A DNA stretch of 64,000 nucleotides from an uncultured cyanobacterium (lineage in GTDB: Bacteria > Cyanobacteriota > Cyanobacteriia > Phormidesmidales > Phormidesmidaceae), in assembly GCA_963793265.1 (NCBI GenBank), contig CAWBZI010000002.1:640001-704000 (forward strand). Direction: 5' to 3'. The notes beneath the pieces were generated by a model. The model ran no database searches. It had not been told where the DNA came from and was given only the letters and a program-made list of their open reading frames with translations. Each line of letters opens with the position of its first letter. The stretch's first letter is position 1. Shown here in pieces: positions 10,708-58,449 of this stretch. Made by a program: the position numbers and the translations under genes.

Positions 10708-11649
10708 ATGGCTGCAACCTCTTTTAGTATCGCGATCGCTACTTACAACCGCCTCGACTTACTCAAGCGCGCCATCCAGTCGGCTCTCGATCAAACCGTC
10801 AGCGCCGAGGTGATTGTGGTCGATAATGCCTCGACCGATGGGACTCAGGCTTATGTGGAGGCGCTAGGCGATCGCGTCATATATGTGCGCAACAGCTCGA
10901 ACCTAAACCATGCGGGCGCGGTGAATGCAGGCGTAGAAGCGGCCAGTGGCGAGTGGATTAAGCTGGTGGATGACGATGATTATTTGGCGGCAGATTGTAT
11001 TGAACGGATGGGGGATGCGATCGCCCTACGCCCCCAGGCCGTAATCTGCTCCTGCCAAGCCGCCCAAGTCAATGCCGAAGGCACCGAACTAAGCCGCACC
11101 CCGACCACTGGCCCCGGCAAAATCTTTTACATTCCCCAAGCCGATATCCACTACGGCATGTTGTTAGAAGTCGTTCCTTTCGGCACTCCCATTCAGGTCG
11201 CCGTCCGCCGCGACGCCTTTCTCAAATCCGGCGGCTGGGACTTATCGATGACAAGCTGCGACGACATCGACTCCTGGATTCGCGTTGCAGAGCACGGCGA
11301 TGCCCTCTTTATCAATCAGTGCTTGGCCTATCGCACCGTATGGCCCGGCGGCTACGACCAAAAGATCGCCCTACCGCAGCGCCTATCCACCAACTTACTG
11401 ATGAAAGAGCGCATCTACCCGCGCGTGAACGCCAAGCACAAAGCCAACCTGCCGCAGCTCTCCACTATTAATAAGTATCTACATTTGCACTGGGCAATCG
11501 TGGCGCTTAAACGCAAGCAGCTTGCGACTACGGCATCCCTCGGCTTTCCAGCCGCGTTTTCTGTACCGGCATGGCAGCTCTTGCAGCAAGCCATCGCCTT
11601 TAGAAAGCAAAAAGCTCAGGCCCCTATTGAAAAAACAGCTTTAGCCTGA
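10708..11649 (+). CDS. glycosyltransferase family 2
   Basis: IATYNR, VVDNASTDGT, DDDD motif. Confidence 0.92.
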   Translation: MAATSFSIAIATYNRLDLLKRAIQSALDQTVSAEVIVVDNASTDGTQAYVEALGDRVIYVRNSSNLNHAGAVNAGVEAASGEWIKLVDDDDYLAADCIERMGDAIALRPQAVICSCQAAQVNAEGTELSRTPTTGPGKIFYIPQADIHYGMLLEVVPFGTPIQVAVRRDAFLKSGGWDLSMTSCDDIDSWIRVAEHGDALFINQCLAYRTVWPGGYDQKIALPQRLSTNLLMKERIYPRVNAKHKANLPQLSTINKYLHLHWAIVALKRKQLATTASLGFPAAFSVPAWQLLQQAIAFRKQKAQAPIEKTALA

Positions 11650-11704
11650 GCCAGCGAGTGCGCTATACTAGCTTGGCTGAATACGTACTTTAGTTGGAGA
11701 AATA

Positions 11705-12313
11705 ATGTCTCGATATAGAGGTCCTCGCCTAAGAGTGGTGCGCCGCTTGGGCGACCTGCCGGGTTTAACCCGCAAATCGGCTCGGAAAGCGTATCCCCCT
11801 GGACAGCATGGTCAGGCTCGTAAAAAGAAGTCTGAGTACTGCATTCGTCTAGAAGAGAAGCAAAAGCTTCGTTACAACTATGGTGTTACCGAGCGCCAGC
11901 TTCTCCGCTACGTGAAAAAAGCACGTCGCGCGAGTGGTTCTACAGGACAAGTGATTTTGCAACAGCTAGAGATGCGGCTGGATAATACCTGCTTCCGCTT
12001 AGGCATGGGGCCAACCATCCCGGCTGCTCGTCAGGTTGTAAATCACGGTCACATCACGGTCAATGGCCGTGTGGTTAGCATTCCTAGCTATCAGTGCCGT
12101 CCGGGTGATGTAATTGGGGTACGCGGCAAAGATGCTTCTAAAAAGCTGGTAGAAGGCAACCTGGAGTTTCCAGGGTTGGCTAACATTCCAGCACACTTGA
12201 CCTTTGATAAAGGCAAGCTAGAAGCAACGGTCAATGGCGTCATCGAGCGCGAATGGATTGCACTGAACATCAACGAACTGTTGGTGGTTGAGTACTACTC
12301 ACGACAGGCTTAA
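11705..12313 (+). CDS. rpsD: 30S ribosomal protein S4
   Basis: [10 protein letters not shown] start, [17 protein letters not shown]. Confidence 0.99.
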
Positions 12314-12394
12314 GCTATTGGCATATCGTTACATCGCTTAGCTGCGACATCTGAAATTAGACTGATGTCTTCGGGACACCTTCTTTTTCTACTA

Positions 12395-12426
12395 AAAGCC
12401 TCTTAGTCTTCGGATTAAGAGGCTTT
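12395..12426. terminator. intrinsic terminator after rpsD
   Basis: aaagcctcttagtc-ttcg-gattaagaggcttt hairpin with cUUCGg loop. Confidence 0.85.
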
Positions 12427-12446
12427 GACATTAATAGATACAGCTT

Positions 12447-12740
12447 CTAGCTGACTTCTTGGAGATATTTTCGCTTCAGAGACGCTGCAAAATCTCTAAC
12501 TTCTGCTAAGCCCTCCTCCGGCAAATTACCTAGAAGTTCAGCTACTTCAGTCTGAATCAGCGTTCCGTCAAGCTTTATATCAGCTCTTTCTAGCGTCAAT
12601 ACATGAGGGGGCTCTATAAATTCGACCTCGAAGCCCTGTCCACCCTTATAGCAGTGAACTACCGCACCTCTATCTCCTTTATATAGGCCAAACTTCGTAA
12701 GGTCACGAGTTAGAACAACAACATCATGTTCGTTAATCAT
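12447..12740 (-). CDS. DUF4926-like protein with a C-terminal DUF2281-like helical segment (putative antitoxin)
   Basis: EHDVVVLTRDL...GDRGAVVHCY...FEVEF, then LPEEGLAEVRDFAASLKRKY; 4-nt overlap with upstream gene. Confidence 0.7.
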   Translation of the reverse strand: MINEHDVVVLTRDLTKFGLYKGDRGAVVHCYKGGQGFEVEFIEPPHVLTLERADIKLDGTLIQTEVAELLGNLPEEGLAEVRDFAASLKRKYLQEVS

Positions 12741-13099
12741 AGGATGGTATCTTCAACTTTACGTTTCTTGTAAGGGCGAGCAGTAACTAGGCGAGGAGCG
12801 ACTTTTCCAGTATCGATAATCCAGACTGTCAGTATGGTAACGGTTTTTCCAGTTGGCGTTGATATGGAACCAATAATGACGTGCTTCAACCCGTACACTG
12901 TTTCAACAACTTCTTGTACGGATGACGTTCTAGCAATGTGAAGAAGTTCATCTTCTAAAAGCTTTAAGTTCGTCTCGCTAAAACCCAGCGATCTAAAGAA
13001 CTTTGCTTTGGCTCCACCAACAGGATGCGTTTTGAGCAATAAATACCCTGTGAGCTTGCTGGGCTGAATAAAAGCGCTCGTGCGGTTGGGAAGCAGCAA
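12737..13099 (-). CDS. DUF6883-like protein (putative toxin)
   Basis: KLTGYLL..HPVGGAKAKFFRSLGF...TVWII...PRLVTARP pattern. Confidence 0.7.
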   Translation of the reverse strand: MLLPNRTSAFIQPSKLTGYLLLKTHPVGGAKAKFFRSLGFSETNLKLLEDELLHIARTSSVQEVVETVYGLKHVIIGSISTPTGKTVTILTVWIIDTGKVAPRLVTARPYKKRKVEDTIL

Positions 13100-13157
13100 T
13101 TAATATCCTTCAGCACTCTCGGCTTTCTGCATCCTATCTACCTAACTGTTAGCCTGT

Positions 13158-14189
13158 CTAGCCCCCAATTTGAGACATCGTGCGGCTGTAGGATCCGGTA
13201 ACGCCAGATTCGCGCATTTTGAAGTTGATATCAGGCTTCTCGCCTACTAGAGCGCCTACCCGTTTTCGCAAGGTGGCCAGCGGAATGCCAGAACGTAAAC
13301 TGGAGCGTAGATCTATCTGGCCGGTTTCGTTGAGGAGGCAGGGTCTTAGAAGGCCATCGGCAGAGAGGCGCATTCGGTTGCATCTATCGCAAAAGCATTC
13401 TGACATTTGGCTAATAAAACCTAATGTTCCTTTTGCGCCGGGAATTTGAAAGACATCAGCCGGGCCATTGCCTTTCACGCTGCCGTCTGTAATTCCCCAG
13501 CGCTGGTTAATTTGTGCGCGGATAGATTCACTATCTACCCAGCCTTTGCTGCCGAATAGATCGCTGTTGCCGATGGGCATGAATTCGATAAACCGGACGT
13601 GCCATTCTTGCTCAAGCGTGAGTGCGGCCAAGTCAAGGACTTCGTGATCATTGATGCCGGGAATGACAACTACGTTCAGCTTAAGAGGAGAGAATCCGAC
13701 TGTGTGGGCAGCTTGGATGCCGCGCCAAACTTCGTGCCAACGAGACTGGTTTTTGCCGCCGACGATTTTTTGAAAGGTGTTGGGGTTCAGAGAATCTAGG
13801 CTGATGTTGATGCGTCGTAAGCCTGCGTCGTAGAGCGGCTGGGCAAGTTTTTCTAGGCGGAAGCCGTTGGTGGTGATAGCGAGGTCTTGGGTTTGCCGGA
13901 GATGGGCGATCGCATCCACCAGCTCCACAATGCCCGGCCTCAGCAAAGGCTCTCCGCCCGTCAGCCGAAAGCGCGTAAACCCCAAAGGAATAAACACTTC
14001 TTTAAGCAGCGTCAAAATCTCATCATGCGTCAGCCAGTGCTCTTTAAGCGCATACTCAAGATCTGCGCCTTCGGGCATACAGTACACGCATTGAAAGTTA
14101 CAGCGGTCGATCAGACTGATGCGTAGATAGTCAATGCGATTTGATGCGGGTGGAACGTTGGCGTTTTTGACACCTAGAAAGGTATTCAT
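13158..14189 (-). CDS. moaA: GTP 3',8-cyclase MoaA
   Basis: Radical [12 protein letters not shown]-terminal [15 protein letters not shown] end. Confidence 0.97.
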
Positions 14190-14335
14190 AGTTTGTAAAA
14201 CTCCTTCTTCCCATACTCCTTCATTCGGAAAGAAATGGCACAGCAGAAAGTATTTTGAGGCAAAACTGAAGGGCTAAAACCGATAGGCAGTAAAGTAAAA
14301 TTGGCACTATGAGCTGTACGTAGCGGAGGCAATTG

Positions 14336-14599
14336 ATGGAATCTTTGAGTGCAAGCGAGGCTAGCGCTAACTTATTTGGATTGGTTGAGCAAGTCAACAA
14401 GGATCATTTGCCTAGAAGGATTATGAGTCAGAACGGCAATGCTGTTTTGCTCTCACAATCGGACTGGGATAGTTTGCAAGAAACGCTTTATCTACAGTCT
14501 ATTCCCGGTTTTGTTCAGTCGGTGAAAGAGATCGACGAGGCAGACGACTGGGTGTCAAAAGCAGAATTTCTGAGGGCGTTAGATGGTGTGGACGATTGA
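14336..14599 (+). CDS. Phd/YefM family antitoxin
   Basis: NAVLLSQSDWDSLQETLYLQSIPG; overlaps the downstream toxin gene. Confidence 0.9.
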   Translation: MESLSASEASANLFGLVEQVNKDHLPRRIMSQNGNAVLLSQSDWDSLQETLYLQSIPGFVQSVKEIDEADDWVSKAEFLRALDGVDD

Positions 14600-14840
14600 G
14601 TTTAGCCGAAAGGCTCTCAAAGACGCCAAAAAGGTCAGAGCTGCTAATTTAGATCGGAACTTGAGACAGCTATTGGAGGAGCTTGAGCAAGACCCATACG
14701 CGCCGCCTTACGAAAAACTATCTGGCAATCTCAAAGGATATTATTCAAGGCGAATCAATATAAAGCACCGCTTAGTTTACAAGGTAGATGACGCTGATAA
14801 ATCCATTCGAGTGATCTCTGTGTGGTCGCATTATGAGTGA
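14583..14840 (+). CDS. Txe/YoeB family mRNA interferase toxin
   Basis: PYEKLSGNLKGYYSRRINIKHRLVY...WSHYE. Confidence 0.93.
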   Translation: MVWTIEFSRKALKDAKKVRAANLDRNLRQLLEELEQDPYAPPYEKLSGNLKGYYSRRINIKHRLVYKVDDADKSIRVISVWSHYE

Positions 14841-15942
14841 AATTTCTTCTACACCTCAAAGCGGATACACATTACCTGTATTTGCCTGTGCAGGTGCGAT
14901 CGCTGCCCTCCGCCTCCTTTCAAAAAACCAATCCCAAACCACCGTCACCCTCAACCTCATCACCCCCGCCCAAACTGCCGACATCTCCATTGAGCAGTCT
15001 GCTCTCCTCCCTGACGCTTCAGCCCTCGCCATCACTCGCAGCGATCCCGGTGACAACTTAGATCTCACACGCCACACGCCGATCTGGTCTATCGTAAGCT
15101 GGGCCAGCGCCGATCAAACTGAGCAAGTTCTATTAGAAGGCGGGGAAGGGATTGGACAACACGCTGACGGCCCAGCCATCTATGCCTACGCGCGGCAGCT
15201 TTTGCAAACGAACCTGGCAAAAGAGTTAAGTGCCGATCAAAAAATTAAAGTAACTATTATTTTGCCAGCCGGACGACAGCTTGCACTGCGCACGTCCAAC
15301 GCGGCATTTGGCGTAGTAGATGGTTTGTCGCTACTCGGCACTAGCGGTATCGCGCAGCCGCTTAGCGCCCCTGGTCAGCTAGAAGCTTATAGACAAACGC
15401 TCAGGGAAAAAGCAGCTAAGTTTGACGATTTAGTTTTTTGCTTGGGTGAGAACGGGCTGGATCTGGCACTGAAGCAGGGGATAGCGGCAGAGAAAAGGTT
15501 GAAAACGGCTAACTGGATTGGGCCTTTGCTTGTAGAAGCTGGGCTACTAGGCGTACGCTCAATTTTGCTCTTTGGCTATCACGGCAAGCTGGTTAAGCTA
15601 GCGGGCGGGATTTTTCATACGCATCATCATGTCGCGGATGGGCGGCAGGAGATTATGGCGGCTTGCTGCGTGCAGGCGGGGATGGAGAGTGCGATCGCTC
15701 AAAAAATCCTTGCTGCAGGCACCACCGAAGCCGGGCTGGAGATCTTGAGAAAGTTGGATCTTCAGCAGGGGAGCCAGTGGGTAGAACAAGTGTATAAAAT
15801 TATCGCTGAGCGAATCGATTATCGCTCGCAGGCTTACATTCAAACCCACGGCGGGCCGAAGGTTCAAGTCGGCAGCGTGCTATTCGACCGGCAGCGTCGG
15901 ATCGTTGTAAAAAGTGAAATGGGCGCAAAACTGCTGGCTTAA
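14833..15942 (+). CDS. cbiD: cobalt-precorrin-5B C1-methyltransferase CbiD
   Basis: SGYTLPVFA, DPGDNLDLT, RTSNAAFGVVDGLSLLGT, GKLVKLAGGIFHTH. Confidence 0.95.
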   Translation: MSEISSTPQSGYTLPVFACAGAIAALRLLSKNQSQTTVTLNLITPAQTADISIEQSALLPDASALAITRSDPGDNLDLTRHTPIWSIVSWASADQTEQVLLEGGEGIGQHADGPAIYAYARQLLQTNLAKELSADQKIKVTIILPAGRQLALRTSNAAFGVVDGLSLLGTSGIAQPLSAPGQLEAYRQTLREKAAKFDDLVFCLGENGLDLALKQGIAAEKRLKTANWIGPLLVEAGLLGVRSILLFGYHGKLVKLAGGIFHTHHHVADGRQEIMAACCVQAGMESAIAQKILAAGTTEAGLEILRKLDLQQGSQWVEQVYKIIAERIDYRSQAYIQTHGGPKVQVGSVLFDRQRRIVVKSEMGAKLLA

Positions 15943-16081
15943 GTTTGCAACTGGTTTGCTACTGTAATTAAAAGCAAATTGGCGATAACACTTAGCGTAG
16001 CAACGTTTGCATAGCAACGTTCTGCCTTCAAAAAGTCTTATCTCAGCCTCAAAAACCCCACCTCAAAACACAGGATTGATT

Positions 16082-17701
16082 GTGGCTTCTCAAACCCAAA
16101 CCTCACAACATCAAGTCGCCAGCTCAGCATCTACTACCGCGCTAAACCGCCAGATGATAGCCATTCTAGACTTTGGCTCTCAATACTCTGAACTCATCGC
16201 CAGGCGGGTTCGCGAAACCGAAGTGTACTCAGAAGTTCTTTCCTATCGCACCACCGCCGAACAACTGCGCCAGCTCAACCCCAAAGGCATCATCCTCTCC
16301 GGCGGGCCAAACTCGGTATACGATTCAAACGCGCCCATCTGCGATCCTGAGATTTGGAACTTAGGCATTCCTGTCCTCGGCGTTTGCTACGGAATGCAGC
16401 TTATGGTTCAGCAGCTCGGCGGTCAGGTGGAGCAGGCAGAACGCGGTGAATATGGCAAAGCTGCCCTGCAAGTTGATTTAGCTGAAGGTCTATTGACCGA
16501 AGTTATTAACGACTCGACAATGTGGATGAGCCACGGCGATTCGGTGACGCAGTTGCCCGATGGTTTTGAGGTGTTAGCGCATACTGAAAATACGCCCCAA
16601 GCTGCGATCGCTCACCCTTCAAAACACTTCTACGGCGTCCAGTTCCACCCCGAGGTCGTCCACTCTACCGGCGGCAGCGCCCTGATTCGCAACTTTGTCT
16701 ACAACATTTGCCAGTGCCAGCCCACCTGGACAACCGAGGCTTTTGTTGAAGAATCTATTCGCGAAGTTCGTGCCAAAGTTGGCAAAGAGCGCGTACTGCT
16801 CGCCCTATCTGGTGGCGTGGACTCTTCTACACTTGCTTTCTTACTTCACAAAGCTATTGGCGATCAGCTCACCTGCATGTTTATCGATCAGGGCTTTATG
16901 CGTAAGCGCGAGCCTGAGCGGCTAATTGAAATATTCAAAAATAAATTCCATATCAAAGTGGAATATATTAATGCGCGCGATCGCTTCTTAGCCAAAGTAA
17001 AAGGCGTCACCGATCCCGAAGAGAAGCGCAAAATCATCGGTCACGAATTCATCCGCGTATTTGAAGAAGAGTCTGCGCGGCTCGGCCCCTTTGATTACCT
17101 AGCGCAAGGCACACTGTATCCTGACGTGATTGAATCGGCTGATACTAACGTCGATCCTCAAACGGGTGAGCGCGTTGCCGTCAAAATTAAGAGCCATCAC
17201 AATGTCGGCGGACTGCCTAAAGATCTGCGGTTTAAGCTAATTGAGCCTTTACGAAAGCTCTTTAAAGACGAAGTGCGCAAAGTGGGCACAGCCGTGGATC
17301 TGCCCGACGATATTGTGCGTCGCCATCCGTTTCCTGGCCCTGGTTTGGCCATTCGGATTCTGGGTGAAGTCACGCCCGAGCGGCTGCATATTTTACGAGA
17401 GGCCGACTATATCATTCGCCAAGAGATTCGCCGCAGTGATAAATACCATGACTTCTGGCAAGCCTTTGGCGTCTTGCTCCCGGTTCGTAGCGTCGGGGTT
17501 ATGGGCGATCAGCGCACCTACGCCTACCCGATTGTGCTTCGACTGGTGAGCAGCGAAGATGGCATGACCGCCGACTGGTCGCGCGCGCCCTATGAGCTGC
17601 TAGAAAGCATCTCGAATCGTGTTGTCAATGAAGTTGAAGGCGTGAACCGAGTGGTCTACGATATTACGTCTAAACCGCCTGGCACCATTGAATGGGAATA
17701 G
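16082..17701 (+). CDS. guaA: GMP synthase (glutamine-hydrolysing)
   Basis: [37 protein letters not shown]; start codon uncertain (GTG 16082). Confidence 0.98.
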
Positions 17702-17878
17702 ACAAGTCGGCATAGCGGTAACTTTTCTGTCTATGGTCGGTAGCCGCCGCTTTGAGTTTGCGGCACAATACAGGCTATAGACTGTTGGCCATAGACTGTG
17801 AATCACAAAGCAGTTTACGCCCACACTCTCCCGAATAAAACTCTCCTTAACCTTTGTCTGGAAAATATCTGTAGCGTC

Positions 17879-18286
17879 ATGAACACCGACACAATTGTTG
17901 AACTATTACAAAAAGGCTATCGCGTGACTTTGGGCGCAGCGTCTTCTGCCGTGGAAGCGGTACAAGATCCGCAGAGAGCCGCCGATGAATTTTCAGCTGT
18001 AGGCACAGACTTCAATCGTCTTGCGGACAAGCTAGAAGTGCGAGGAGCGCTTACTGAGAAAGAAGCCCGTGACTTTATGGAAGGCGTGGTTAGCCAAATG
18101 CCCGAGCCCTTCCGCAGCGTCTCTTCTACATTCGTACAAGACACAACGCCCAAAGAGCCCCGAACGGTCACCACAGTGGCGACGCCTGTAATTGATTCTG
18201 GCCTAAAAGCAGAAGTTGAGTCTTTGACGGCTGAGCTGATTGCGATGCGTAAAGAAATTGATGAGCTTCGTCAGAAAGACAGCTAG
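17879..18286 (+). CDS. conserved cyanobacterial hypothetical coiled-coil protein
   Basis: LLQKGYRVTLGA...RGALTEKEAR; ORF track 17798..18286, ATG at 17879. Confidence 0.75.
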   Translation: MNTDTIVELLQKGYRVTLGAASSAVEAVQDPQRAADEFSAVGTDFNRLADKLEVRGALTEKEARDFMEGVVSQMPEPFRSVSSTFVQDTTPKEPRTVTTVATPVIDSGLKAEVESLTAELIAMRKEIDELRQKDS

Positions 18287-18320
18287 GTCAAGTTCGCTGG
18301 ACTTTTGGAGAATCAAAAGG

Positions 18321-18348
18321 AGGTGTCTGCAAATGTAGGCACCTTTTT
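18321..18348 (+). terminator. intrinsic terminator
   Basis: aggtgtctgc-aaat-gtaggcacct followed by a T tract. Confidence 0.7.
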
Positions 18349-18472
18349 CGTTGAGTCCTTTCTCAAAAGAGCTTGATGCTACTGTAAAGGCAGATTCGAG
18401 AAACGAAGAAGAAACAGATATTTGGATCGCCCATGTATTCTCCTCAGTCGCCCCTATCTGCAGAGCCTCAGC

Positions 18473-18529
18473 CCTGAAAAATTGCCTGAAAAGCTGCGAT
18501 CGCTAGGCATCAATCCAGACGAGCTATAA
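18473..18529 (+). pseudogene. remnant resembling the C-terminal tail of Uma2-family genes
   Basis: Translates PEKLPEKLRSLGINPDEL* with no recognisable body upstream. Confidence 0.5.
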
Positions 18530-18531
18530 AA

Positions 18532-19203
18532 CTAGGGATCAGCAGGCTCGATAGGAGATGAACCCGCAGGCGGCGCAGTTGGCGTCGGGGAAATAGGCGG
18601 CAGACCGTTCGGAGCGGTGAGCTGGCCGCCAGACGGTGCTGAAGGAACATTGAGGCCACCATCGCTAGGCAGTGGCGCGGTTTGACCAGGCGTATTTTGG
18701 CCCGGTGTAATCTGTACGCCCTGAGAGCGCAAAACGTCTTCTAGGCTCTGGCCGCCTTGCGTCGGATCGAGAGAGGCGTCATTAGGCAGGGTTGCTAAGG
18801 CTACGCGATCACCCCCAACTGAGCGCAGCAAATCGAGCACTTTCACCACGTCCTCATAGCGCGCGCTGCGAGAGGCATACAGCACAATTGTGCCGTTGGG
18901 TGCGATTTGCTTGTGCTGCACCAGTACGTCGTAAAGCAGGCCGAGCGGCACCGCACTTTTGTCTACATATACCTGGCCCGCACTGTCTACGCTGACATAG
19001 AGACGATCGCGACTATTGCCTTCAACGGGTGAGCTATTGGTGACTGCTGGTAGATCGAGTGCGATCGCCTGCTGCCGGGTCAGCCCTACTGCCGCCAAAA
19101 TAAAGAATGTCAGAATACAAAAAATCACATCAATCATCGGCAGAATTTCAATCTGCACGTCTGACTGGCGATTATCGTCGAGATCTAATTTCATAGCGGC
19201 CAA
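18532..19203 (-). CDS. exbD: biopolymer transporter ExbD/TolR
   Basis: EILPMIDVIFCILTFFIL TM motif; Pro-rich C-terminal tail. Confidence 0.9.
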   Translation of the reverse strand: MAAMKLDLDDNRQSDVQIEILPMIDVIFCILTFFILAAVGLTRQQAIALDLPAVTNSSPVEGNSRDRLYVSVDSAGQVYVDKSAVPLGLLYDVLVQHKQIAPNGTIVLYASRSARYEDVVKVLDLLRSVGGDRVALATLPNDASLDPTQGGQSLEDVLRSQGVQITPGQNTPGQTAPLPSDGGLNVPSAPSGGQLTAPNGLPPISPTPTAPPAGSSPIEPADP

Positions 19204-19243
19204 AATAGGGATGAGAGAGATCGATCAGGAGATATTAGTAGCG

Positions 19244-19975
19244 CTAGAAAACGGTAGGCGTGCCTTCTTCCTGCGGTAAAGGCGTATCTATCGTCGGAGA
19301 TGGCGGCGCATTGACGAGGTTTTCACTCAGCAGGCTAGGCTTACCGTCTGTATAGGCCCAAGCCTGACGATATAACAGCTCTAACTCGTTGCCCGAAAGC
19401 TGAAACATCTTGGCCTGACCAAATACAAAGCCCTGAAACAAGCGGTAAAAAGCTAAGCTCACAATCGCAATTACCAGACCCGCAGCGGTACTAATGAGCG
19501 CCTCGCCAATGCCCAAAGCAGTCCCGGCAGTCGCATCGCCTACGCCTAGATCGTTGAGGTTAATCGAGCCGAGCGAGTTGATCAAACCCACAACCGTTCC
19601 AAGCAAACCGAGCAAAGGGGAAAGGGCAATCACCGCTTCTAAAACCTTCTCGCCCCGGCGCATAATCGCCAGCTCTTCGTTAGCCGAAGTTTCTAGCGCC
19701 AGGCGAAACACCTCTGGGTCTTGGTCTTTGAGCTTGAGAGCACCTAACAAAAAGCGACCCATCGGTAGCCGACTGGCGCGCTGAGCAATTTGGGTTGCCG
19801 CTGACCATTCGCGCCGCGCTGCTTCTAGTACGCGCCCAGATACCTCACGCTCTCGGGTCAAAATTCTAGACCAAAACCAAATTCTTTCCATAATGGTGCC
19901 AAGTGCCAAAATAGATAGAAACAGCAGCGGCCACATTGCAATGCCGCCCTGCTGAAAGAGTTGCGAGATGTTCAC
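19244..19975 (-). CDS. exbB: MotA/TolQ/ExbB proton channel
   Basis: SPLLGLLGTVVGLI, GIGEALISTAAGL. Confidence 0.92.
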   Translation of the reverse strand: MNISQLFQQGGIAMWPLLFLSILALGTIMERIWFWSRILTREREVSGRVLEAARREWSAATQIAQRASRLPMGRFLLGALKLKDQDPEVFRLALETSANEELAIMRRGEKVLEAVIALSPLLGLLGTVVGLINSLGSINLNDLGVGDATAGTALGIGEALISTAAGLVIAIVSLAFYRLFQGFVFGQAKMFQLSGNELELLYRQAWAYTDGKPSLLSENLVNAPPSPTIDTPLPQEEGTPTVF

Positions 19976-48221: not shown

Positions 48222-48250
48222 CTTGGCTGTGCTATTCAATCCATCGCAAT

Positions 48251-48643: not shown

Positions 48644-48719
48644 GAATCCTTTAGCAACGCATTAAGCCAGCAGCGTTCCCGATAGAATCGCAGACAGGCC
48701 CCTCTAATCATCACCTGTA

Positions 48720-51251: not shown

Positions 51252-51469
51252 TCAACCGCCTCAAAAGATTCAACTTCCAGCACTGGCCCCACCATCGCCA
51301 TCGTCATCACATCCTCGCGCACCTTACCTGTTATCGAAACCTTCTGCCCTTCTGTATCCAAAGCCTCAGCCTTAGACCCATACAGTTCGTAGGTTTGTCC
51401 ATCATCGCCCGACAAGGCCCAAGTTCCGGTGCCCATGTCCATCCAAGTAATCGTGCCAGTCACCGTCAT
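51248..51469 (-). CDS. small OB-fold-like hypothetical protein
   Basis: GTWALSGDDGQTYEL...MTMAMVGPVLEV. Confidence 0.75.
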   Translation of the reverse strand: MTVTGTITWMDMGTGTWALSGDDGQTYELYGSKAEALDTEGQKVSITGKVREDVMTMAMVGPVLEVESFEAVD

Positions 51470-51509
51470 GGATTAAGTTCTCTGTAATTTTTGACCATTA
51501 AACCAAAAA

Positions 51510-51551
51510 ATCAGCGGCAACGCTTCTATTAAAAGGAGCACTGCCGCTGAT
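51510..51551. terminator. hairpin terminator downstream of the S8 protease
   Basis: atcagcggca...tgccgctgat with an adjacent A tract (T tract on minus strand). Confidence 0.65.
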
Positions 51552-51570
51552 CTATCACTTAGCTGTTGCT

Positions 51571-53349
51571 TTAAGTAGGCTCAGTAATCGTCTTCAGTCC
51601 CAAATAAGCAATCAACAGGCTCAAAGCTGCGTTCACCGCCAAAAATAGCTGCGACCAAAGCCCCGAACTCATCCAGGCAACATGCGGATAAAAGAAGACG
51701 CTGACACCTAAAGTAGCCGTTACGCCAATAGCTGCGCCGATGGTGACCCAGCCCAAGCGAGGGTGACTGAGCAAAAAGGCCAGCATCAAAAAGGGAATGA
51801 GCGCGCTAGCCGTCACCGGATTAAGCTTGGCAGAATGGGTAAGCACACTGCCAATTTCAGGCAAAGAGCTGCCGAGCAATCTCAGCGGCCAGTGAGGCAA
51901 ATCGAACAGGTGTAAAGGCGGTAGCAAGAATAAACCGACGCTGCCAAGTACCGCGCCCAGCCAATAGTCACCATTCCAACGATAGTGATCTGCGACCTTG
52001 CTCATCAACCAGGTCAGCGCCATCACTGCGCTCCAAAGAATAGCAATCTTTTTCCAAGGAATTGTTTGCCAGTTGTACCAAATGCGGCTGTTCAACGGGT
52101 TGACCACACCTAAGCCAAACGCAAACGGCCACTTCCCTTTACGGGCCAGCTTCACCGCCGCCGCTGCATCTAATCGGCCAGCACCAAAAAAGTTGCGGTC
52201 ATCGCCAGGCACCTTTACCGAGGATTTCTGCAAGGTCGCCCAAATCTGATCGGGCTTCTTCACACCCGCTGCTTTTACAGCCGCCGCCACGCCAGCCACA
52301 TGAGGCGCTGCCATGCTAGTACCCTGAAAATACTTAAAGGCCGACTGCTTCGTTTGGCGGTCGATAGTCTCTTGCAAAATACCACCTGCTTCACCTTCGC
52401 GCGTATTGCCACCAGGCGCAGAAATATCAACGCCCGCACCGTAGTTAGAATAAGGCGCTTTTGCATCTTTAGAATCAGTTGCAGCCACGCCCATCACGTG
52501 ACTATATCTAGCCGGGTAAGAGGCCGCATTCTGGCCCGCATTACCTGCCGCCGCAATTATCGTGACGCCTTTGCCATAGGCATAATCAACCGCATCTTGC
52601 ATGAGCTGAGACTTACCGCCGCCGCCCAGGCTCATATTGATCACGTCAGCACCGTTATCCGCTGCAAACCGAATCGCCTCGGCAATATCAGCCGTCGTAC
52701 CGCCGCCCTGCGCGCTGAGCACCTTCAGCGGCATAATCTTAGCTTCGTAAGCCACGCCTGCTACGCCATAACGATTATTTGTAGACTGAGCAATGGTACC
52801 TGCAACGTGAGTGCCGTGACCATTGTCATCATCAGCCTTTTCGCGGTCGTTTACAAAGTCGTAGCCGGGCACGAACTCCGTATTGCTTAAATCCTTAACC
52901 TGCGTCACGCCCGTGTCAATCACGGCGACAGTAACGCCTTTACCTCGGCTCACTTTCCAGGCTTCTTCAGCGTTGATGCTCTTTAGATTCCACTGCTTGG
53001 CATAGTCAGGATCGTTAGGGCCGCCGAAAAAGGTGCTGTAGATGTAGTTAGGCTCTACGAATTCTAAAAACTCAGATAGCTCGGATTGGCGGAAGCGCTC
53101 AATGGTGGCGCGATCACCCTTCGCCACATAAACATGATCTTCGGTTGAAAACTTACTGTTCGGCGTCAGCTCTAACCCAAACTTTTTCGCCGCCACCTCT
53201 ACCTGCGCAACTGCCGCAGGATTGTCTCTAAAGTCAAGAACAATTGAATCAAAATTTCCTGTTCTTGCGAGGCTACCGCTAAACTTGAAAATGCCCACTA
53301 TCCCGGCAATTAAAAGTCCTATAAAGAACAGGGGTACAAGACGCCGCAT
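51571..53349 (-). CDS. S8 subtilisin-family serine protease with a C-terminal membrane domain
   Basis: Catalytic triad motifs VIDTG, HGTHVAGT, GTSMAAPHVAG. Confidence 0.95.
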   Translation of the reverse strand: MRRLVPLFFIGLLIAGIVGIFKFSGSLARTGNFDSIVLDFRDNPAAVAQVEVAAKKFGLELTPNSKFSTEDHVYVAKGDRATIERFRQSELSEFLEFVEPNYIYSTFFGGPNDPDYAKQWNLKSINAEEAWKVSRGKGVTVAVIDTGVTQVKDLSNTEFVPGYDFVNDREKADDDNGHGTHVAGTIAQSTNNRYGVAGVAYEAKIMPLKVLSAQGGGTTADIAEAIRFAADNGADVINMSLGGGGKSQLMQDAVDYAYGKGVTIIAAAGNAGQNAASYPARYSHVMGVAATDSKDAKAPYSNYGAGVDISAPGGNTREGEAGGILQETIDRQTKQSAFKYFQGTSMAAPHVAGVAAAVKAAGVKKPDQIWATLQKSSVKVPGDDRNFFGAGRLDAAAAVKLARKGKWPFAFGLGVVNPLNSRIWYNWQTIPWKKIAILWSAVMALTWLMSKVADHYRWNGDYWLGAVLGSVGLFLLPPLHLFDLPHWPLRLLGSSLPEIGSVLTHSAKLNPVTASALIPFLMLAFLLSHPRLGWVTIGAAIGVTATLGVSVFFYPHVAWMSSGLWSQLFLAVNAALSLLIAYLGLKTITEPT

Positions 53350-53478
53350 AAAGTCTCCGAAAGAGTAAAGTTTAGAAAAAGCTGAAGCTAAAAAAATCTG
53401 AAGGACACTAGCCACTCTTATAGAGTAGTTACTGCAAGCCTTCAATCACAGATGTTGGATTTACGGACGGACAGTAAG

Positions 53479-53934
53479 ATGAAACAACAAAACTTATTAC
53501 GACAAGCTCGAATAACAGTTCAGTTAACCAGCGTCGCTTTTTTACTCGTCGGCAGCATTATGTTAGGAAGCTGCACACCCTCTACTACTGATACGACTGA
53601 CACACCCATTTCATCATCCGAACCTGCGACTCAGCCAGAGGTTCCGGTTCCACCGACAGCCGCCCCCATTGGAGAAGCTGAACTACCCGCTGAGGTAGAG
53701 GCAAGTGTTCTTCAAGACATCGCAACTACAGACAATGTTCCAGCCGAAGAACTACAAATTACGAATGCTCGCCCTGAAGCCTGGCCCGATGGCTGCTTAG
53801 GATTAGGTGGTTCCGATGAGATTTGCACCTTTGCAATCGTAGACGGGTGGGAAGTTGCCGTTGAGCGTGGGGAAGAGCAGTGGGTGTATCGGACGAACAG
53901 TGATGGGAGTGTGGTAAGAAGAGCGATCGCCTAA
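53479..53934 (+). CDS. hypothetical lipoprotein
   Basis: Lipobox LGSC; WPDGCLGL...C...GW...WVYRT. Confidence 0.75.
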   Translation: MKQQNLLRQARITVQLTSVAFLLVGSIMLGSCTPSTTDTTDTPISSSEPATQPEVPVPPTAAPIGEAELPAEVEASVLQDIATTDNVPAEELQITNARPEAWPDGCLGLGGSDEICTFAIVDGWEVAVERGEEQWVYRTNSDGSVVRRAIA

Positions 53935-53950
53935 CAAGCAAAGTCAAACC

Positions 53951-55105
53951 TCACAAATTGGCCTTCAGTAAGTCACAAACATGCTGTGCCGTTGCAGGCG
54001 CTAGCAGCACTCCATTGCGATAGTGGCCCGTTGCCAGCAACACATTATTCGTGTCACCTAGCGGCTTAATTACAGGAGCCGGTTGGCCGACTGGGCGAGG
54101 GCGAATGCCGCTCCAGGTTTTAAGAACTTTGGCTTGAGCTAAAGCGCTCACAAAGCTTTCAGCACCTTGCCGCAAGTTCGCAAGACCTTCGGCTTCGGCT
54201 TCTAGTTTGTCCATATCAGCCCAGTCATCAGGCGGAAACTCCACCGTTGCGCCTATCCAATAGCGCCCTTTGCCTAGCGGGACAAACTGAATGTCGTGAC
54301 CATTAACCACTGGCTGAAAGTTTTCTTTCCCTAACACTTCGGGCAAAGCAACTTCCATGGCCTGACCAAGCACTGGCATTAGTTCTAAGGGTTCGTTTAC
54401 AAACCGCGTCAGCACCGCCGAGCCCAATCCTGCTGATAGCACAACCCAATCAGCCTCAAAATCACCCCGACTTGTTTGCAAAGCTGAACATCGCTGCTCA
54501 GACACTTCTATTTGAATAACATCAGCGTCATCGTAAAACTTGACGCCATTTTCTCTCGCCGCAGCGATCAAAGCACGAGTGAGTTCTACCGGGTGCACCT
54601 GTGCGTCAGCGGGCGAATAAATCGCTGCTTTCACAGTAGAATTATCTTCTGATTTAGTATCGCCCAAGACTTCTAGTTCAGTGTCGCCCAAGCTGATGTG
54701 CGGACAGCGGTCTTTCAGTTCATTCAGCGTCCAAATCTCTAACGGCCAGCCCTGCGCTTTTCGCTTTTCTCGCAACGTTTCCCACCGAGGCAGCTTACTC
54801 TCGTCGTAGCACAGGCTGACAATGCCCTGCGAGTTAAAAGGCACTGAGTAGCCTTGCTCTGATAGCTCTGCGATTAACGACCCGTAGCGTCGAATGCTCG
54901 CCTCTCGCAGCCGCCAGGTTCTTCCTTTCACTTTTCCACTAATCGCGCCCATCAGCACACCTAATGCTGCGCCCGTCGATCCTTGAGCAGGCGGCTGGCG
55001 GTCGAGAACAACAATCTCTGCGGAGAGCTGTCGGCTCAGCTCGTAAGCGGTTAGCGCACCCACAATACCGCAGCCAACAACAACAATTTTGGGCTTTGTA
55101 TTCAT
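53951..55105 (-). CDS. FAD-dependent oxidoreductase (DAO/glycine oxidase-like)
   Basis: GCGIVG, WSGIRPRP, GHYRNGVLLAP. Confidence 0.9.
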   Translation of the reverse strand: MNTKPKIVVVGCGIVGALTAYELSRQLSAEIVVLDRQPPAQGSTGAALGVLMGAISGKVKGRTWRLREASIRRYGSLIAELSEQGYSVPFNSQGIVSLCYDESKLPRWETLREKRKAQGWPLEIWTLNELKDRCPHISLGDTELEVLGDTKSEDNSTVKAAIYSPADAQVHPVELTRALIAAARENGVKFYDDADVIQIEVSEQRCSALQTSRGDFEADWVVLSAGLGSAVLTRFVNEPLELMPVLGQAMEVALPEVLGKENFQPVVNGHDIQFVPLGKGRYWIGATVEFPPDDWADMDKLEAEAEGLANLRQGAESFVSALAQAKVLKTWSGIRPRPVGQPAPVIKPLGDTNNVLLATGHYRNGVLLAPATAQHVCDLLKANL

Positions 55106-55169
55106 AAAAAAAACAGCAGAGAACGGAACACCATTCTCTGCTTTATAAAAGATCTAACAGTCTAAAAAC

Positions 55170-55793
55170 CTAGCCGTTCTCACCTTTATCTATCGCATCG
55201 GGTGCTTCACTAGGGGCAGCGGGCTCCTCATCGATCATCACAGGGGCGCGAACCATGTCTTCAGGCTCAGCGCGAATGGCTTCAGGATCAGGAATGCTAG
55301 TGGTCATATCGTATACGCTGGGCTCCTCAAACTCTTCTGCCTTTTTGCGAGCGTCTTCAGGTACAACGCTTAAAAAGGTGTCAAAGTCATCAACAAACTC
55401 GCGATACTGGAAAATAGCGTCATTGTAATTACGCTCTTGAGAAGCTTCATCCAAATTTTGCAGGTGCGCCAGCATTTCTTCAGTCATGGCCTTGGCCTTG
55501 GGCTGATCGTCAGGCAATAGCTGATTGGTCAGGCGCGTTAGCTCTGAGCGAATTTGGCCGAGTGGGCCGTGTGTAAAGTTGTCTACATTGACCCAGTTAT
55601 CTTTTTCAATGTAGTTGGCTAGCTCGGGCAGTCTTTCGCGAGCAATTTCAACGCGGTTGACGTAGTTTTGAAGCTGAGAAATTTTCTCAGGGGTGTAGGT
55701 CGGGGCGACAGCTTCGGGGGCGCTGCCGCAGCTCACTAAGAAAGTGGCGATCGCAGCTATCAAAACCCCGACTACTGCTCTGTATCGTCTCAT
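55170..55793 (-). CDS. psbQ: photosystem II lipoprotein PsbQ (CyanoQ)
   Basis: Lipobox LVSC, PTYTPE, HGPLGQIR, LLPDDQ. Confidence 0.9.
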   Translation of the reverse strand: MRRYRAVVGVLIAAIATFLVSCGSAPEAVAPTYTPEKISQLQNYVNRVEIARERLPELANYIEKDNWVNVDNFTHGPLGQIRSELTRLTNQLLPDDQPKAKAMTEEMLAHLQNLDEASQERNYNDAIFQYREFVDDFDTFLSVVPEDARKKAEEFEEPSVYDMTTSIPDPEAIRAEPEDMVRAPVMIDEEPAAPSEAPDAIDKGENG

Positions 55794-55887
55794 GGAAGAA
55801 CCTCACGTTTCGTTATAAAGATTGCGGGATCTAGTGTAAATCACGCTGCCGCCAGATCAAACGTCCCAAAGGCCATAGACAATTGCG

Positions 55888-57018
55888 CTAGGTTCGCCAT
55901 AGGGCATCAGCCATCCGACAGACGTCGCGCATTTGAGGGCCGTCGTGAACGCGAAGAATATCAGCACCGTGGGCGATCGCACAGTCCAAAGTCGCCGCCG
56001 TGCCCCACACCCGATCCTTCGCCTCTGGCTGATTCAGTAGCCTGCCAATAAAGCTTTTACGCGAAGTGCCCACCAAAATCGGACATCCCAGCGCCTTCAG
56101 CTTTTCTAGCTCACGCAAAATCGTAATATTCTGCGCCCCTGTTTTCGCAAAGCCAATCCCTGGATCAATTGCAATCTTTTTAGGATCAACGCCCGCTTCA
56201 ACCGCCTTATCCGCCTGCGCTGCTAAAAAATTAACCAGCTCTCCCATCAAATCGTCATAGTCCGTCATTTGCTGCATCGTCTCAGGCGTACCGCGCAGGT
56301 GCATGAGCATCACAAACGCATCGAACTCAGCCGATACCTTGAGAATATCGGGCTCGTAGGTGCCGCCTGAAATGTCGTTGATGATGTCTGCGCCTGCTTC
56401 AAGCGCAGCGCGGGCAACTTCTGCGCGGGTGGTATCTACTGAAATCGGAATGTCTCGTAGCCAGTCATGCGATGAGCTGCGGATGGCTTTGATGATGGGG
56501 ATGACGCGATCGCACTCCTCGCTTAAAGTCGTCGGCTTCGAGCCTGGCCTAGCAGACTGGCCCCCAATATCCAAAATATCCATCTTGGCTTCTACTAACG
56601 CCTTCGCCTGAGCCAGCGCTGTTTCTACCGTATTGAACTCGCCGCCGTCACTGAAACTATCGGGCGTTACGTTCAATACGCCCATCAAATAAGAGCGATC
56701 GCCCCACGCAAACCGATGATCGCGAATCTGCCAGGGCGCTACTGCCGAACCCGCCTTTGCGATAGCCGCTTCCTTTTGGCCTTCTTCAATGAACAGTCGT
56801 GCCAGGCGATCGTAAGTGCCAGGGCCTAAGTATTCAGGGTGCGATCGCCCCCGACCGAACACCCATACCGGCACCCACCCCCGCTCAGACCTTTCTAAAA
56901 TACGAATATCTTTGAACCAGCTCTTCAGCGACGACTTCATAGAATTCGCCTTTTCCAGCGCATCCGTCCACCGTTCATATCCCTGCTCAAAGCCAGGTGT
57001 CACAACCTTAAAAGTCAT
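55888..57018 (-). CDS. folP: dihydropteroate synthase with an extra N-terminal domain
   Basis: MGVLNVTPDSFSDGG, DPGIGFAK, SRKSFIG, RVHD. Confidence 0.95.
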   Translation of the reverse strand: MTFKVVTPGFEQGYERWTDALEKANSMKSSLKSWFKDIRILERSERGWVPVWVFGRGRSHPEYLGPGTYDRLARLFIEEGQKEAAIAKAGSAVAPWQIRDHRFAWGDRSYLMGVLNVTPDSFSDGGEFNTVETALAQAKALVEAKMDILDIGGQSARPGSKPTTLSEECDRVIPIIKAIRSSSHDWLRDIPISVDTTRAEVARAALEAGADIINDISGGTYEPDILKVSAEFDAFVMLMHLRGTPETMQQMTDYDDLMGELVNFLAAQADKAVEAGVDPKKIAIDPGIGFAKTGAQNITILRELEKLKALGCPILVGTSRKSFIGRLLNQPEAKDRVWGTAATLDCAIAHGADILRVHDGPQMRDVCRMADALWRT

Positions 57019-57088
57019 GGATTTCTGTCCATATCCCACATACACAAGACCTTACTTATACACCGCTCAAGACCGTTAAAAGTGCAAA

Positions 57089-57448
57089 CTATTCGCGCTC
57101 ATACAGCACCTTTCCTTCCCGTAAAAGCTGCGCGATAAATGGTCGATGCTTACACCGCGACAGCTCTTCAGGTGTGTAGACAATGGCATCTACCGAACGA
57201 GGGGAATCTATTAGTAAGTTTAAGACCTCGCCAATCCTATCTATCGGGCGAATATCGCACTGCCAGAGCATGAACAGGTCTATATCCGACCGGCGGGTTG
57301 CCTCTCCGCGAGCCCAAGAACCGAACAGGATGATTTTCTCTGGCTCAAACTTTGCTCGCAGCCATTCAGTCGCTTCATTCAGCCACGGCTGAATAGTTTC
57401 TATATCTTGAGTTTTGACTGGTCTAAAAACCCTATCAACTTTTGTCAT
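57089..57448 (-). CDS. minimal nucleotidyltransferase (MNT)
   Basis: LFGSWARGEATRRSDIDL, REGKVLYE. Confidence 0.9.
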   Translation of the reverse strand: MTKVDRVFRPVKTQDIETIQPWLNEATEWLRAKFEPEKIILFGSWARGEATRRSDIDLFMLWQCDIRPIDRIGEVLNLLIDSPRSVDAIVYTPEELSRCKHRPFIAQLLREGKVLYERE

Positions 57449-57603
57449 CGCACTTCGTTCCGACTGCCTTGAAGAATCTCACAGCATAATGCTCAAGCAA
57501 AGTTCCATTACATAAACAAGAACCATAAACCATAAGATTTCACTCATAATAAGAGAGCAAGGTCAATAAAATCTGTTTCTCTATTCGTACAGGCCGCATC
57601 CTT

Positions 57604-58449
57604 ATGCTCGAACTTCACAGCCATACCACCTGCTCTGATGGCAGACTGACACCTGCTGAGCTAGTCGAGTTTGCGGCTACACAAGGCGTCAAGGCTTTGG
57701 CCATTACCGATCATGACACGATGGCGGGCTGGGAGGAGGCGATCGCAACCGCCACTCCCTTAAATCTAGAAATCATCCCTGGCTTAGAGCTAAGCACCGT
57801 CTATAACGGACGCTCTATGCACATTTTGGGCTTCTACCCTGACCAAGAAAAACTACGCGAGCCCCTTCAAGAGCGGGTAGAAGGCCGCAAACGTCGTGCC
57901 CGTAAAATGGGTGAAAAGCTCGCGGCACTTGGCTACCCTATTGAGCTGCCCGACATGCCCGGCGCAATGGCCCCCGGTCGTCCTCATATCGCTAGCGCCC
58001 TTAAAAAAGCAGGCCACGTCAACTCCCACAACGAAGCCTTCGATCGCTTCTTAAAAGACGATGGCCCTGCCTACGTTCCCTACGAAAAGTTCACCGCGCA
58101 GCAGGGTATTGAACTTTTGCTAAGCTGCGGTGCGGTGCCAGTATGGGCACATCCTTTCATCTTTCGCGGTGGTACCGTCGAAACCGTTTTACCCGAGCTG
58201 GTCGAAGCCGGGCTGATGGGTATAGAGGTATATCATCCCACTCATAGCGCTAGCCAAACCCGAAAACTAGAAGAATATTGCGCAGAGTATGGTCTACTCA
58301 TGACTGGCGGCAGTGACTATCACGGCCCTAAAAGAGAGAAAAATCGCGATTTTTGCGATCTTAATGATCTAAACGTTTCGCTTAACCTTTTGCCACCTAT
58401 AAAAGCAGCCGCAGCCGCACTAAAAACGACGCCAAAACGCGGCCTATAG
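57604..58449 (+). CDS. PHP domain phosphoesterase
   Basis: LHSHTTCSDG, AITDHD, PGRPH, TGGSDYHG. Confidence 0.93.
   Translation: MLELHSHTTCSDGRLTPAELVEFAATQGVKALAITDHDTMAGWEEAIATATPLNLEIIPGLELSTVYNGRSMHILGFYPDQEKLREPLQERVEGRKRRARKMGEKLAALGYPIELPDMPGAMAPGRPHIASALKKAGHVNSHNEAFDRFLKDDGPAYVPYEKFTAQQGIELLLSCGAVPVWAHPFIFRGGTVETVLPELVEAGLMGIEVYHPTHSASQTRKLEEYCAEYGLLMTGGSDYHGPKREKNRDFCDLNDLNVSLNLLPPIKAAAAALKTTPKRGL

Follow-up and report, generated by a model that had tools for sequence, protein, structure and literature searches.

This study was concerned with a 64,000-nt stretch of DNA from an uncultured cyanobacterium (contig CAWBZI010000002.1, positions 640,001 to 704,000; hereafter "the window") and with the palindromic octamer HIP1, GCGATCGC, which has been without an accepted function since the 1990s. 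As a rule, the plus strand changes locally from G-rich to C-rich about each HIP1 site of the window (1..64000), with the site at the centre, and by symmetry the minus strand does so too. The anchoring of this footprint to the full octamer, its polarity, its independence of gene context, its action at the level of DNA and its phylogenetic spread are established by the results that follow. The process that produced it is a matter of interpretation, and is weighed after them.

The window contains 88 copies of HIP1, compared with 2.0 expected and with 6 in the richest of 100 shuffled sequences. The asymmetry of each window site was scored over 1..45 nt on each side of HIP1, and 87 of the 88 sites could be scored. 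It was above zero at 77 of these, zero at three and below zero at seven, with a mean of 9.71±0.81, while random window positions averaged -0.09 and were above zero in 45% of cases. The whole genome holds 6,888 copies in 5.68 Mb (one per 820 bp), of which 6,886 were scorable. Genome asymmetry was defined as (G-C over -60..-10) minus (G-C over +10..+60). The average profile around any palindrome is antisymmetric by necessity if it is non-zero, so that the real test is whether it is non-zero. The original prediction had suggested control octamers for comparison, and the controls used were the 142 of the 256 palindromic octamers that had at least 30 copies. The asymmetry of HIP1 was 7.83±0.10 and that of the 142 controls averaged -0.13 (sd 1.19). 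The second-largest value among well-populated palindromic octamers belonged to ATCGCGAT (4.47±0.44, n=298), which may reflect overlapping or tandem HIP1 copies.

On the plus strand, GC skew before and after HIP1 (n=6,886) was +0.42/-0.42 at 1-3 nt, +0.19/-0.20 at 10-18 nt, +0.13/-0.14 at 31-45 nt, +0.07/-0.09 at 61-90 nt and +0.03/-0.04 at 121-180 nt, and the profile showed a 3-nt period. AT skew was opposite in sign, with T exceeding A before HIP1 and A exceeding T after it. Thus the original prediction of a G/T-rich 5' flank and a C/A-rich 3' flank, made by eye at a few sites, is confirmed as a genome-wide average. The per-site shift was unimodal and was positive at 81.9% of HIP1 sites, compared with 45.5% of 7,095 random positions, and the asymmetry was found on all seven contigs (6.65 to 8.32). 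Every G/T-rich k-mer was polar around HIP1 (for example, 4.55 for GGGG/CCCC and 3.27 for GGTG/CACC), and no single motif carried the signal. A repeated element or a single polar motif was rejected on the basis of the unimodal shift and the polarity of all G/T-rich k-mers. Mirrored flank positions paired no more than marginal base frequencies predict. At ±1 to ±3 the mirrored bases were complementary less often than predicted (0.193 against 0.267 at ±1), so the palindrome is not extended there; G before and C after HIP1 are each favoured at these positions. A hairpin or extended palindrome was therefore also rejected.

The effect of coding context was analyzed with crude gene calls, namely the longest non-overlapping open reading frames (ORFs) of at least 100 codons, which gave 4,536 ORFs covering about 85% of the genome. 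The flip was seen for HIP1 in plus- and minus-strand genes, in all three frames, at gene borders and at intergenic sites (n=558), in agreement with the claim that it is independent of gene orientation. Skew against distance at third codon positions had been proposed as a check. In the gene sense, third-position skew passed from +0.64 to -0.50 across HIP1 at 1-9 nt and was +0.14/-0.09 at 101-150 nt, and the change at codon positions 1 and 2 was 5-8 times smaller (n=4,688). On the strand with HIP1 at its 3' side, skew at 4-fold degenerate sites was 0.60 at 1-9 nt, 0.46 at 10-30, 0.35 at 31-60, 0.25 at 61-100, 0.146 at 101-200, 0.083 at 201-400 and 0.056 beyond 400 nt. It was alike for the sense and antisense strands (0.452 and 0.463 at 10-30 nt). 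At the same distance of 10-30 nt the skew at codon positions 1 and 2 was 0.089 and 0.060. A two-exponential fit to the decay gave lengths of about 55-65 nt and about 800-900 nt. Since the median HIP1 spacing is 585 nt, the genome carries a sawtooth of skew. Both flanks show the effect whichever strand carries the gene, which excludes a block to transcription.

The footprint needs the full HIP1 octamer. Submotifs and variants were scored at sites more than 200 nt from any true HIP1. Asymmetry was 0.01±0.41 for CGATCG without the outer G and C (n=264), 0.01±0.34 for GCGATCG followed by a letter other than C (n=435) and -0.62 for GATC alone, and G-rich/C-rich control palindromes showed no footprint. 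The methylation submotifs CGATCG and GATC were thus rejected as drivers. Among one-letter variants of HIP1, 9 of 12 lay within 1.3 standard errors of zero. The others were GTGATCGC (5.95±0.38, n=491), GCAATCGC (2.32±0.57) and GAGATCGC (2.07±0.60). GTGATCGC and GCAATCGC differ from HIP1 by a transition and GAGATCGC by a C>A transversion, and we read the two transition products as decayed HIP1 sites that still bear the imprint. GTGATCGC (reverse complement GCGATCAC) was the commonest one-letter variant away from true HIP1, with 491 copies compared with 99-288 for the others. It is the product expected from deamination of the first C of CGATCG if that C is methylated, and its excess fits a deamination hotspot at that C without Vsr-type repair. 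The genome has seven C5-methyltransferase loci of unassigned specificity, and the abundance of GTGATCGC fits methylation at that C without proving it. The same change was seen between strains: the HIP1 site at 8593..8600 reads GCGATCAC in a near-identical metagenome strain (one contig from run X1, depth 10.3), by G>A at 8599, which is C>T at the second HIP1 letter on the other strand. Contigs of near-identical strains in these runs carried 185 differences, 40 of them listed.

Orthologous places were compared with G007, a genome of the same genus, of which 261.6 kb aligned to this genome in 117 blocks at 73% DNA identity. Related genomes have been described as sharing the positions of HIP1 sites (Xu et al. 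2018, cited through PMC13756078), and here 89 of 143 alignable sites were HIP1 in G007 too. Where the orthologous place was one letter off HIP1, GTGATCGC was the commonest state (4 of 10 and 4 of 6 cases). Shared sites had an asymmetry of 10.46±0.91 in this genome and 8.31±0.83 in G007, and unshared sites 7.56±1.01 and 4.31±0.96. We read shared sites as older sites, which carry a stronger footprint. The critical comparison used places that are HIP1 in one genome and differ by at least two letters in the other (n=87, pooled). The asymmetry was 6.40±0.76 where HIP1 was present and 0.72±0.87 at the aligned places without it. Since the skew appears only where HIP1 is present at the same gene position, the footprint follows HIP1 and not the gene. 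Coding context was rejected as the cause for this reason, and because the flip is alike in every frame, for either gene strand and in intergenic DNA. A search of metagenomes for closer strains gave a best match of 91% protein identity.

The bases that change were identified at silent sites. At 4-fold sites on the 5'-flank strand, the composition at 10-30 nt differed from that beyond 400 nt by +0.147 for G, -0.093 for C, -0.037 for A and -0.016 for T. At 2-fold sites, where transitions alone are silent, C/(C+T) near HIP1 on this strand moved from 0.48 to 0.32 and G/(A+G) from 0.53 to 0.65. On the strand 5' of HIP1, 2-fold sites shift C>T and A>G, and 4-fold sites also gain a purine, G. Hydrolytic deamination of single-stranded DNA removes C and A from one strand. 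In addition to the skew there was a local peak of GC content, with 4-fold G+C at about 0.59 at a distance of 10-30 nt, compared with about 0.54 far away.

The footprint is lineage-specific: extreme in the genus of this organism, weak in most cyanobacteria and absent in some that are rich in HIP1. Its amplitude varies more than ten-fold between lineages. As a proxy, forward matches to GGGG-gap(1-30)-HIP1 were divided by those to CCCC-gap(1-30)-HIP1 in 401 sampled genomes of the phylum, 159 of which had at least 200 matches. The median ratio in the 159 was 1.68; it was above 1 at z>3.3 in 114 and below 1 at z<-3.3 in three, all of one genus. The present genome had the highest ratio (6.98; the runner-up had 3.65), all twelve other genomes of its genus had ratios of 2.5-6.6, and two other genera of its family had 1.46 and 1.68. 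In a HIP1-poor family (f2), the two genomes with enough matches had ratios of 1.28 and 0.79, and all 16 of its genomes added together gave 623 GGGG and 743 CCCC matches. The three reversed ratios (0.61-0.64) were those of G131, G164 and G202, of family f16; scored directly over 60 kb, G131 was not significantly negative (-1.13±1.09, n=60). Direct asymmetry was 6.49±0.43 (n=294) in G007 and, in other families, was also clear in G058 (6.74±1.20, n=66), G208 (11.69±2.10, n=16), G114 (3.47±0.96, n=55) and G406 (3.00±1.01, n=42). In further genomes of other families it was weak or unclear (G018, G019, G020 and G022) or null, as in G017 (-0.53±0.58, n=164), G016 (-1.32±0.88, n=65) and the above-mentioned G131. 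Metagenome contigs around relatives of MoaA gave an independent sample. At 80% identity or more the asymmetry was 7.70±0.76 (118 sites, 8 loci), and it was 3.20±0.52 at 74-79%, 2.51±0.37 at 70-73% and 0.29±0.68 at 60-69%.

We give a probability of roughly 0.5 to the reading that HIP1 starts a strand-polar DNA transaction in which the complement is removed 5'->3' from HIP1, exposing the 5'-flank strand. A nick or double-strand break would arise at HIP1, and the complement of the 5'-flank strand would be removed 5'->3' starting there. The strand running 5'->3' towards HIP1 would then be single-stranded, or serve as template, more frequently than the complementary strand. The exposed strand would lose C and A, and these changes would be copied into the resynthesised complement. 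Over evolution this would leave G>C and T>A before HIP1 and the mirror image after it, in weakly constrained positions, with a sawtooth between neighbouring sites. The direction of removal follows from the sign: the 5'-flank strand appears as the exposed one on both sides, which implies removal of the complement 5'->3' from HIP1, and removal 3'->5' would give the opposite sign. We infer the single-strandedness, the break or nick, the 5'->3' direction and the mutational nature of the imprint from base composition. The reading as an accumulated, DNA-level footprint is suggested by four results: third positions are 5-8 times more strongly affected, 2-fold sites show C>T and A>G on one strand, decayed sites retain the imprint and older sites bear a stronger one. 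The original prediction had held that HIP1 seeds a strand-polarised process. The skew is indeed anchored to HIP1, strand-polar and blind to orientation, frame and protein context; the further claim, that it is the mutational footprint of repair, resection or recombination, is a hypothesis. A more specific form, in which HIP1 is a programmed, methylation-gated entry site for a nick or break and a bacterial counterpart of a meiotic hotspot motif, is tentative and, in our judgement, doubtful. In polyploid cyanobacteria, 5'->3' resection would then proceed from a gated HIP1 about once per kb and feed recombination between chromosome copies or with incoming DNA.

The reading of a strand-polar transaction at HIP1 is weakened by several results. 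First, G017, G016 and G131 are rich in HIP1 and have no footprint, so the process is not intrinsic to HIP1. Secondly, T does not rise at 4-fold sites and the main flow is from C to G; thus plain cytosine deamination is insufficient. Third, 4-fold identity between this genome and G007 was flat with distance from HIP1 (0.38-0.44, near saturation), which gives no sign of a raised rate near HIP1, though the sites are close to saturated. Fourth, skew outside ORFs was 0.139 at 10-30 nt compared with 0.458 at 4-fold sites (about 30%), and this deficit held whether the nearest HIP1 was coding or not and in ORF-free stretches of at least 300 nt. The low non-coding amplitude disfavours a purely neutral mutational equilibrium, since similar amplitudes would be predicted. 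Either intergenic DNA is more constrained or turns over faster, or part of the footprint is a fixation bias stronger in coding DNA. Lastly, no responsible nuclease was recognised. MutH (PF02976) was not found in this genome by a search in which the E. coli control matched, although an unrecognised analogue is possible. Thirteen cyanobacterial genomes, this one included, were searched with Pfam profiles for Vsr, RecC, uracil-DNA glycosylase (UDG) and endonuclease V; Vsr (PF03852; controls match) and RecC (PF04257) were each found in 0 of 13. No PD-(D/E)XK protein of AddAB size was found in this genome, the matches lying in frames of 284, 199 and 241 aa. The candidate nucleases beside the seven C5-METHYLTRANSFERASE loci, an HNH protein and the 261-aa and 264-aa ORFs, were rejected because a search found none of them in G007, which bears the footprint.

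The main rival is a strand-specific conversion bias, and we regard it as unlikely. Recombination between chromosome copies, or with transforming DNA, would begin at HIP1 and form heteroduplex whose strand composition is fixed on each side, and a base- and strand-dependent correction of mismatches would drive G onto the 5'-flank strand, which yields the same polarity and the same anchoring to HIP1. The absence of higher 4-fold divergence near HIP1 fits this explanation, and the rise of 4-fold GC near HIP1 resembles that of hotspots with GC-biased conversion. The weak non-genic imprint would also fit if heteroduplex forms poorly in indel-rich intergenic DNA. To our knowledge no repair bias favours G on one defined strand. 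C·C mismatches are poorly repaired, and a simple argument from that predicts the opposite sign. The stimulation of homologous integration by HIP1, as reported in the available part of a preprint (bioRxiv 10.1101/2024.09.10.611283), counts for fixation bias. However, one strand shifts C>T and A>G at 2-fold sites, and this is the classic mark of damage to single-stranded DNA.

Direct selection on the flanks is a good deal less likely. In this case a G/T-rich strand ending 3' beside HIP1 would be favoured, for example for RecA loading or pairing as at Chi, or for DNA uptake, and the skew would be adaptive. RecA prefers GT-rich DNA, the amplitude varies between site classes, and the HIP1 sites themselves are conserved (the 89 of 143 shared at 73% DNA identity). 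A role of HIP1 in transformation and recombination, as far as the same preprint describes it (bioRxiv 10.1101/2024.09.10.611283), also points this way. However, the gradient runs smoothly over about 1 kb and takes in thousands of silent sites per genome, with no discrete motif involved. In addition, the imprint survives at decayed sites, is weakest where coding constraint is least and is missing from HIP1-rich model lineages.

Pausing of replication forks at a protein bound to HIP1 has a similarly small probability. The lagging-strand template just before the block would stay single-stranded and suffer damage, and forks arriving from the two sides would give mirror images. The sign of the footprint, G>C and then C>G, is that of a small replication terminus, and its scales, from tens of nt to about 1 kb, would match gaps in the lagging-strand template. 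One-sided footprints would be expected in regions of strong regional skew, but they were not seen: the footprint was additive and equal on both sides in all five quintiles of regional skew (upstream minus regional +0.13 to +0.17, downstream -0.14 to -0.16). Regional skew is a weak proxy of fork direction, so this is not decisive; its 5th to 95th percentiles were -0.08 to +0.08, far below the 4-fold amplitude near HIP1 (0.46-0.60). Lastly, an artefact or by-product (an extended consensus, a mobile element or hairpin, codon or protein context, or chance HIP1 sites at G-rich/C-rich junctions) is already refuted: the left half of HIP1 is itself G-rich and the right half C-rich, and the strong G...C preference at the first 1-3 flanking bases (skew 0.42) may partly be an extended recognition sequence, but the skew extends for hundreds of nt with a unimodal per-site shift and no excess pairing, occurs alike in every frame, in genes of either strand and in intergenic sequence, is missing where the orthologous place lacks HIP1, and is not shown by 7-of-8 matches or by G-rich/C-rich control palindromes.

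The gene content of this genome includes a MutS_V match (E=1.1e-83) in a 926-aa frame plus a second match, a MutL_C match (E=8.8e-18) in a 590-aa frame and a RecJ_OB match. PDDEXK_1 frames were at most 285 aa in this genome and G007, and 866-1116 aa in G149, G208, G114, G406 and G131. In addition to the HNH protein, ORFs of 264, 261 and 188 aa without Pfam matches lie beside the methyltransferase loci. A search for the HNH, 261-aa and 264-aa candidates in G007, G058, G208, G282 and G362 gave only weak HNH-domain matches, outside G007, and these candidate nucleases are strain-specific. All 13 genomes had UDG. Endonuclease V (PF04493), an enzyme for the removal of deaminated adenine, was found in 7 of the 13, in a pattern that does not follow the footprint. 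The search gave no match in this genome, G007 or the footprint-free G017, G131 and G087, and the enzyme was present in G058 and G208, where the footprint is strong. It was also present in G282 and G362, of two other genera of the family. Loss of deaminated-base repair was thus rejected as the source of lineage differences. Two methyltransferase loci look like decaying restriction-modification systems. At L075 (G000:C4:88034-99084) an intact SinI-type restriction endonuclease gene adjoins a C5-methyltransferase with a Pfam match divided between two frames. At L074 (G000:C1:804848-816017) a SmaI-type restriction gene in two pieces adjoins a methyltransferase, the frame of which is interrupted by two internal stops.

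The footprint can be compared with several known systems. In replication skew and in vertebrate mitochondrial DNA, G exceeds C and T exceeds A on the strand that is longer single-stranded, and in mitochondria C>T and A>G rise with the time of single-strand exposure. The same two transitions shift at 2-fold sites near HIP1. Replication skew switches at a single origin and a single terminus, whereas the present pattern switches locally at thousands of places and is independent of regional skew. Chi, the site of RecBCD/AddAB, is likewise an over-represented octamer that stimulates homologous recombination, and it leaves a single-stranded, RecA-loaded tail 5' of the site on the strand that carries it, with which the composition polarity at HIP1 agrees. 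Chi is asymmetric and works in one orientation, whereas HIP1 is its own reverse complement and is methylated; a palindromic Chi-like site would give the same polarity as the HIP1 footprint. Chi systems also differ in that no RecC was found in the 13 genomes and that the PD-(D/E)XK frames of this genome are short, as noted above. We know of no compositional footprint around Chi. In Synechococcus PCC 7002, according to the available text of Kamoku & Nielsen (bioRxiv 10.1101/2024.09.10.611283), methylated HIP1 in homology arms raised transformation more than 100-fold, which was called "reminiscent of a Chi site".

There is also a likeness with human meiotic double-strand-break hotspots. In the portion of Hinch 2023 available (PMC7615360), the strand left single-stranded by 5'->3' resection, which is the forward strand to the left of the break, has C>N and A>N mutations. 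There too a mirror-image asymmetry surrounds a sequence-defined centre, and it is the strand ending 3' at the centre that mutates, as the corresponding strand here has lost C and A; the authors attribute it to 5'->3' resection and single-strand damage. Unlike those de novo mutations, the HIP1 signal is a standing base composition. Its host is a bacterium, in which some 6,900 centres occur at a density of one per 820 bp, and each centre is a methylated palindrome of 8 bp instead of a PRDM9 motif, the break itself being presumed here. The footprint decays mainly over about 60 nt and has a tail of about 900 nt, compared with 1-2 kb in the human case as given in that source.

A model specific to HIP1 is that of Elhai (Life 2015, PMC4390886), a G-mC-directed form of mismatch repair in which a MutH analogue works at HIP1. 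In the model as given in the available text, strand excision enters at HIP1, its influence is predicted to extend as far as about 1 kb, and the predicted density of sites is close to 1 per kb. Both predictions match the present results, and MutS and MutL are present in this genome. The model explains the origin of HIP1 and, in that text, predicts no skew. Like the Dam-type system of E. coli, it needs a site-specific nicking endonuclease, MutH or an analogue, and no MutH was found here. In addition, E. coli-type repair excises in both directions, whereas the HIP1 footprint has a single polarity in every site class; equal two-way excision would cancel the footprint, so its sign does not match bidirectional excision. 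The available text of Elhai 2015 (PMC4390886) looked only for conserved extensions of the motif and contains neither "skew" nor "asymmetr". No description of HIP1 flank skew was found in the main texts of Elhai 2015, Xu 2018 and PMC13756078, or in the open-access and bioRxiv literature searched, supplements being outside the search. The 2026 paper (PMC13756078) states, in its available part, that the function of HIP1 is "only beginning to be elucidated".

The eight window sites named in the original prediction illustrate the range of the footprint. The hand counts given for two of them were exact, as were the gene labels, which Pfam matches support. HIP1 at 11017-11024 (with flanks, 10972..11069) lies in a plus-strand GT2 gene (10708-11649; Glycos_transf_2, E=2.1e-30), with G14/C3 before and C17/G7 after over 36 nt and an asymmetry of 25. 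HIP1 at 13906-13913 (13861..13958) lies in a minus-strand MoaA-type gene (13158-14189; Radical_SAM and Mob_synth_C), with G20/C6 in the 45 nt before and C21/G8 after and an asymmetry of 27. Six more sites were said to look the same, and this is true of five. They are 49289-49296 (49244..49341; G15/C7 before, C14/G8 after; asymmetry 14), 50874-50881 (50829..50926; G14/C8, C20/G6; 20), 55973-55980 (55928..56025; G15/C11, C22/G8; 18), 57739-57746 (57694..57791; G17/C10, C15/G6; 16) and, as a weak example, 36150-36157 (36105..36202; G12/C10, C15/G9; 8). The sixth, at 14896-14903 (14851..14948) in a plus-strand gene with a CbiD match, is skewed only in its 3' flank, being C-rich after HIP1 (C21/G3) and not G-rich before it (G9/C12), with an asymmetry of 15. 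The concern that sites picked by eye were biased is borne out, as the eight form the upper tail (mean 17.9 over 1..45 nt). Selection is not the cause of the signal, since the other 79 scorable window sites average 8.89±0.82 and 87% of them are above zero. The site at 18496..18503 is a counter-example (asymmetry -8) and is one of seven reversed sites in the window, the others starting at 24018 (-9), 28180 (-3), 31219 (-2), 37059 (-2), 40483 (-1) and 44813 (-9). Elsewhere in the window, metagenome runs pile up high-depth contigs with many differences on the ribosomal protein S4 gene (rpsD region, 11700-12320). These presumably come from other organisms, so that their depth and variants are not those of this strain.

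The footprint is the first sequence-level sign of something directional starting at HIP1. By its polarity, the strand 5' of the site acts like an exposed or template strand, so that the complement would be removed 5'->3', and its decay gives a length scale of about 60 nt with a tail of about 1 kb. The amplitude can be read from any genome and regressed on gene content to find the enzyme. Bench comparison of strains that have the footprint with strains that lack it is also possible. In genomes of this kind, synonymous codon choice and local GC skew depend on the distance to HIP1, and some amino-acid usage is also tied to it, as codon positions 1 and 2 shift by 0.06-0.09. If HIP1 is a programmed entry site, the silent-site sawtooth would be an accumulated scar, and the amplitude would record the activity of the pathway lineage by lineage, from extreme in this genus to silent in those of G017 and G131.

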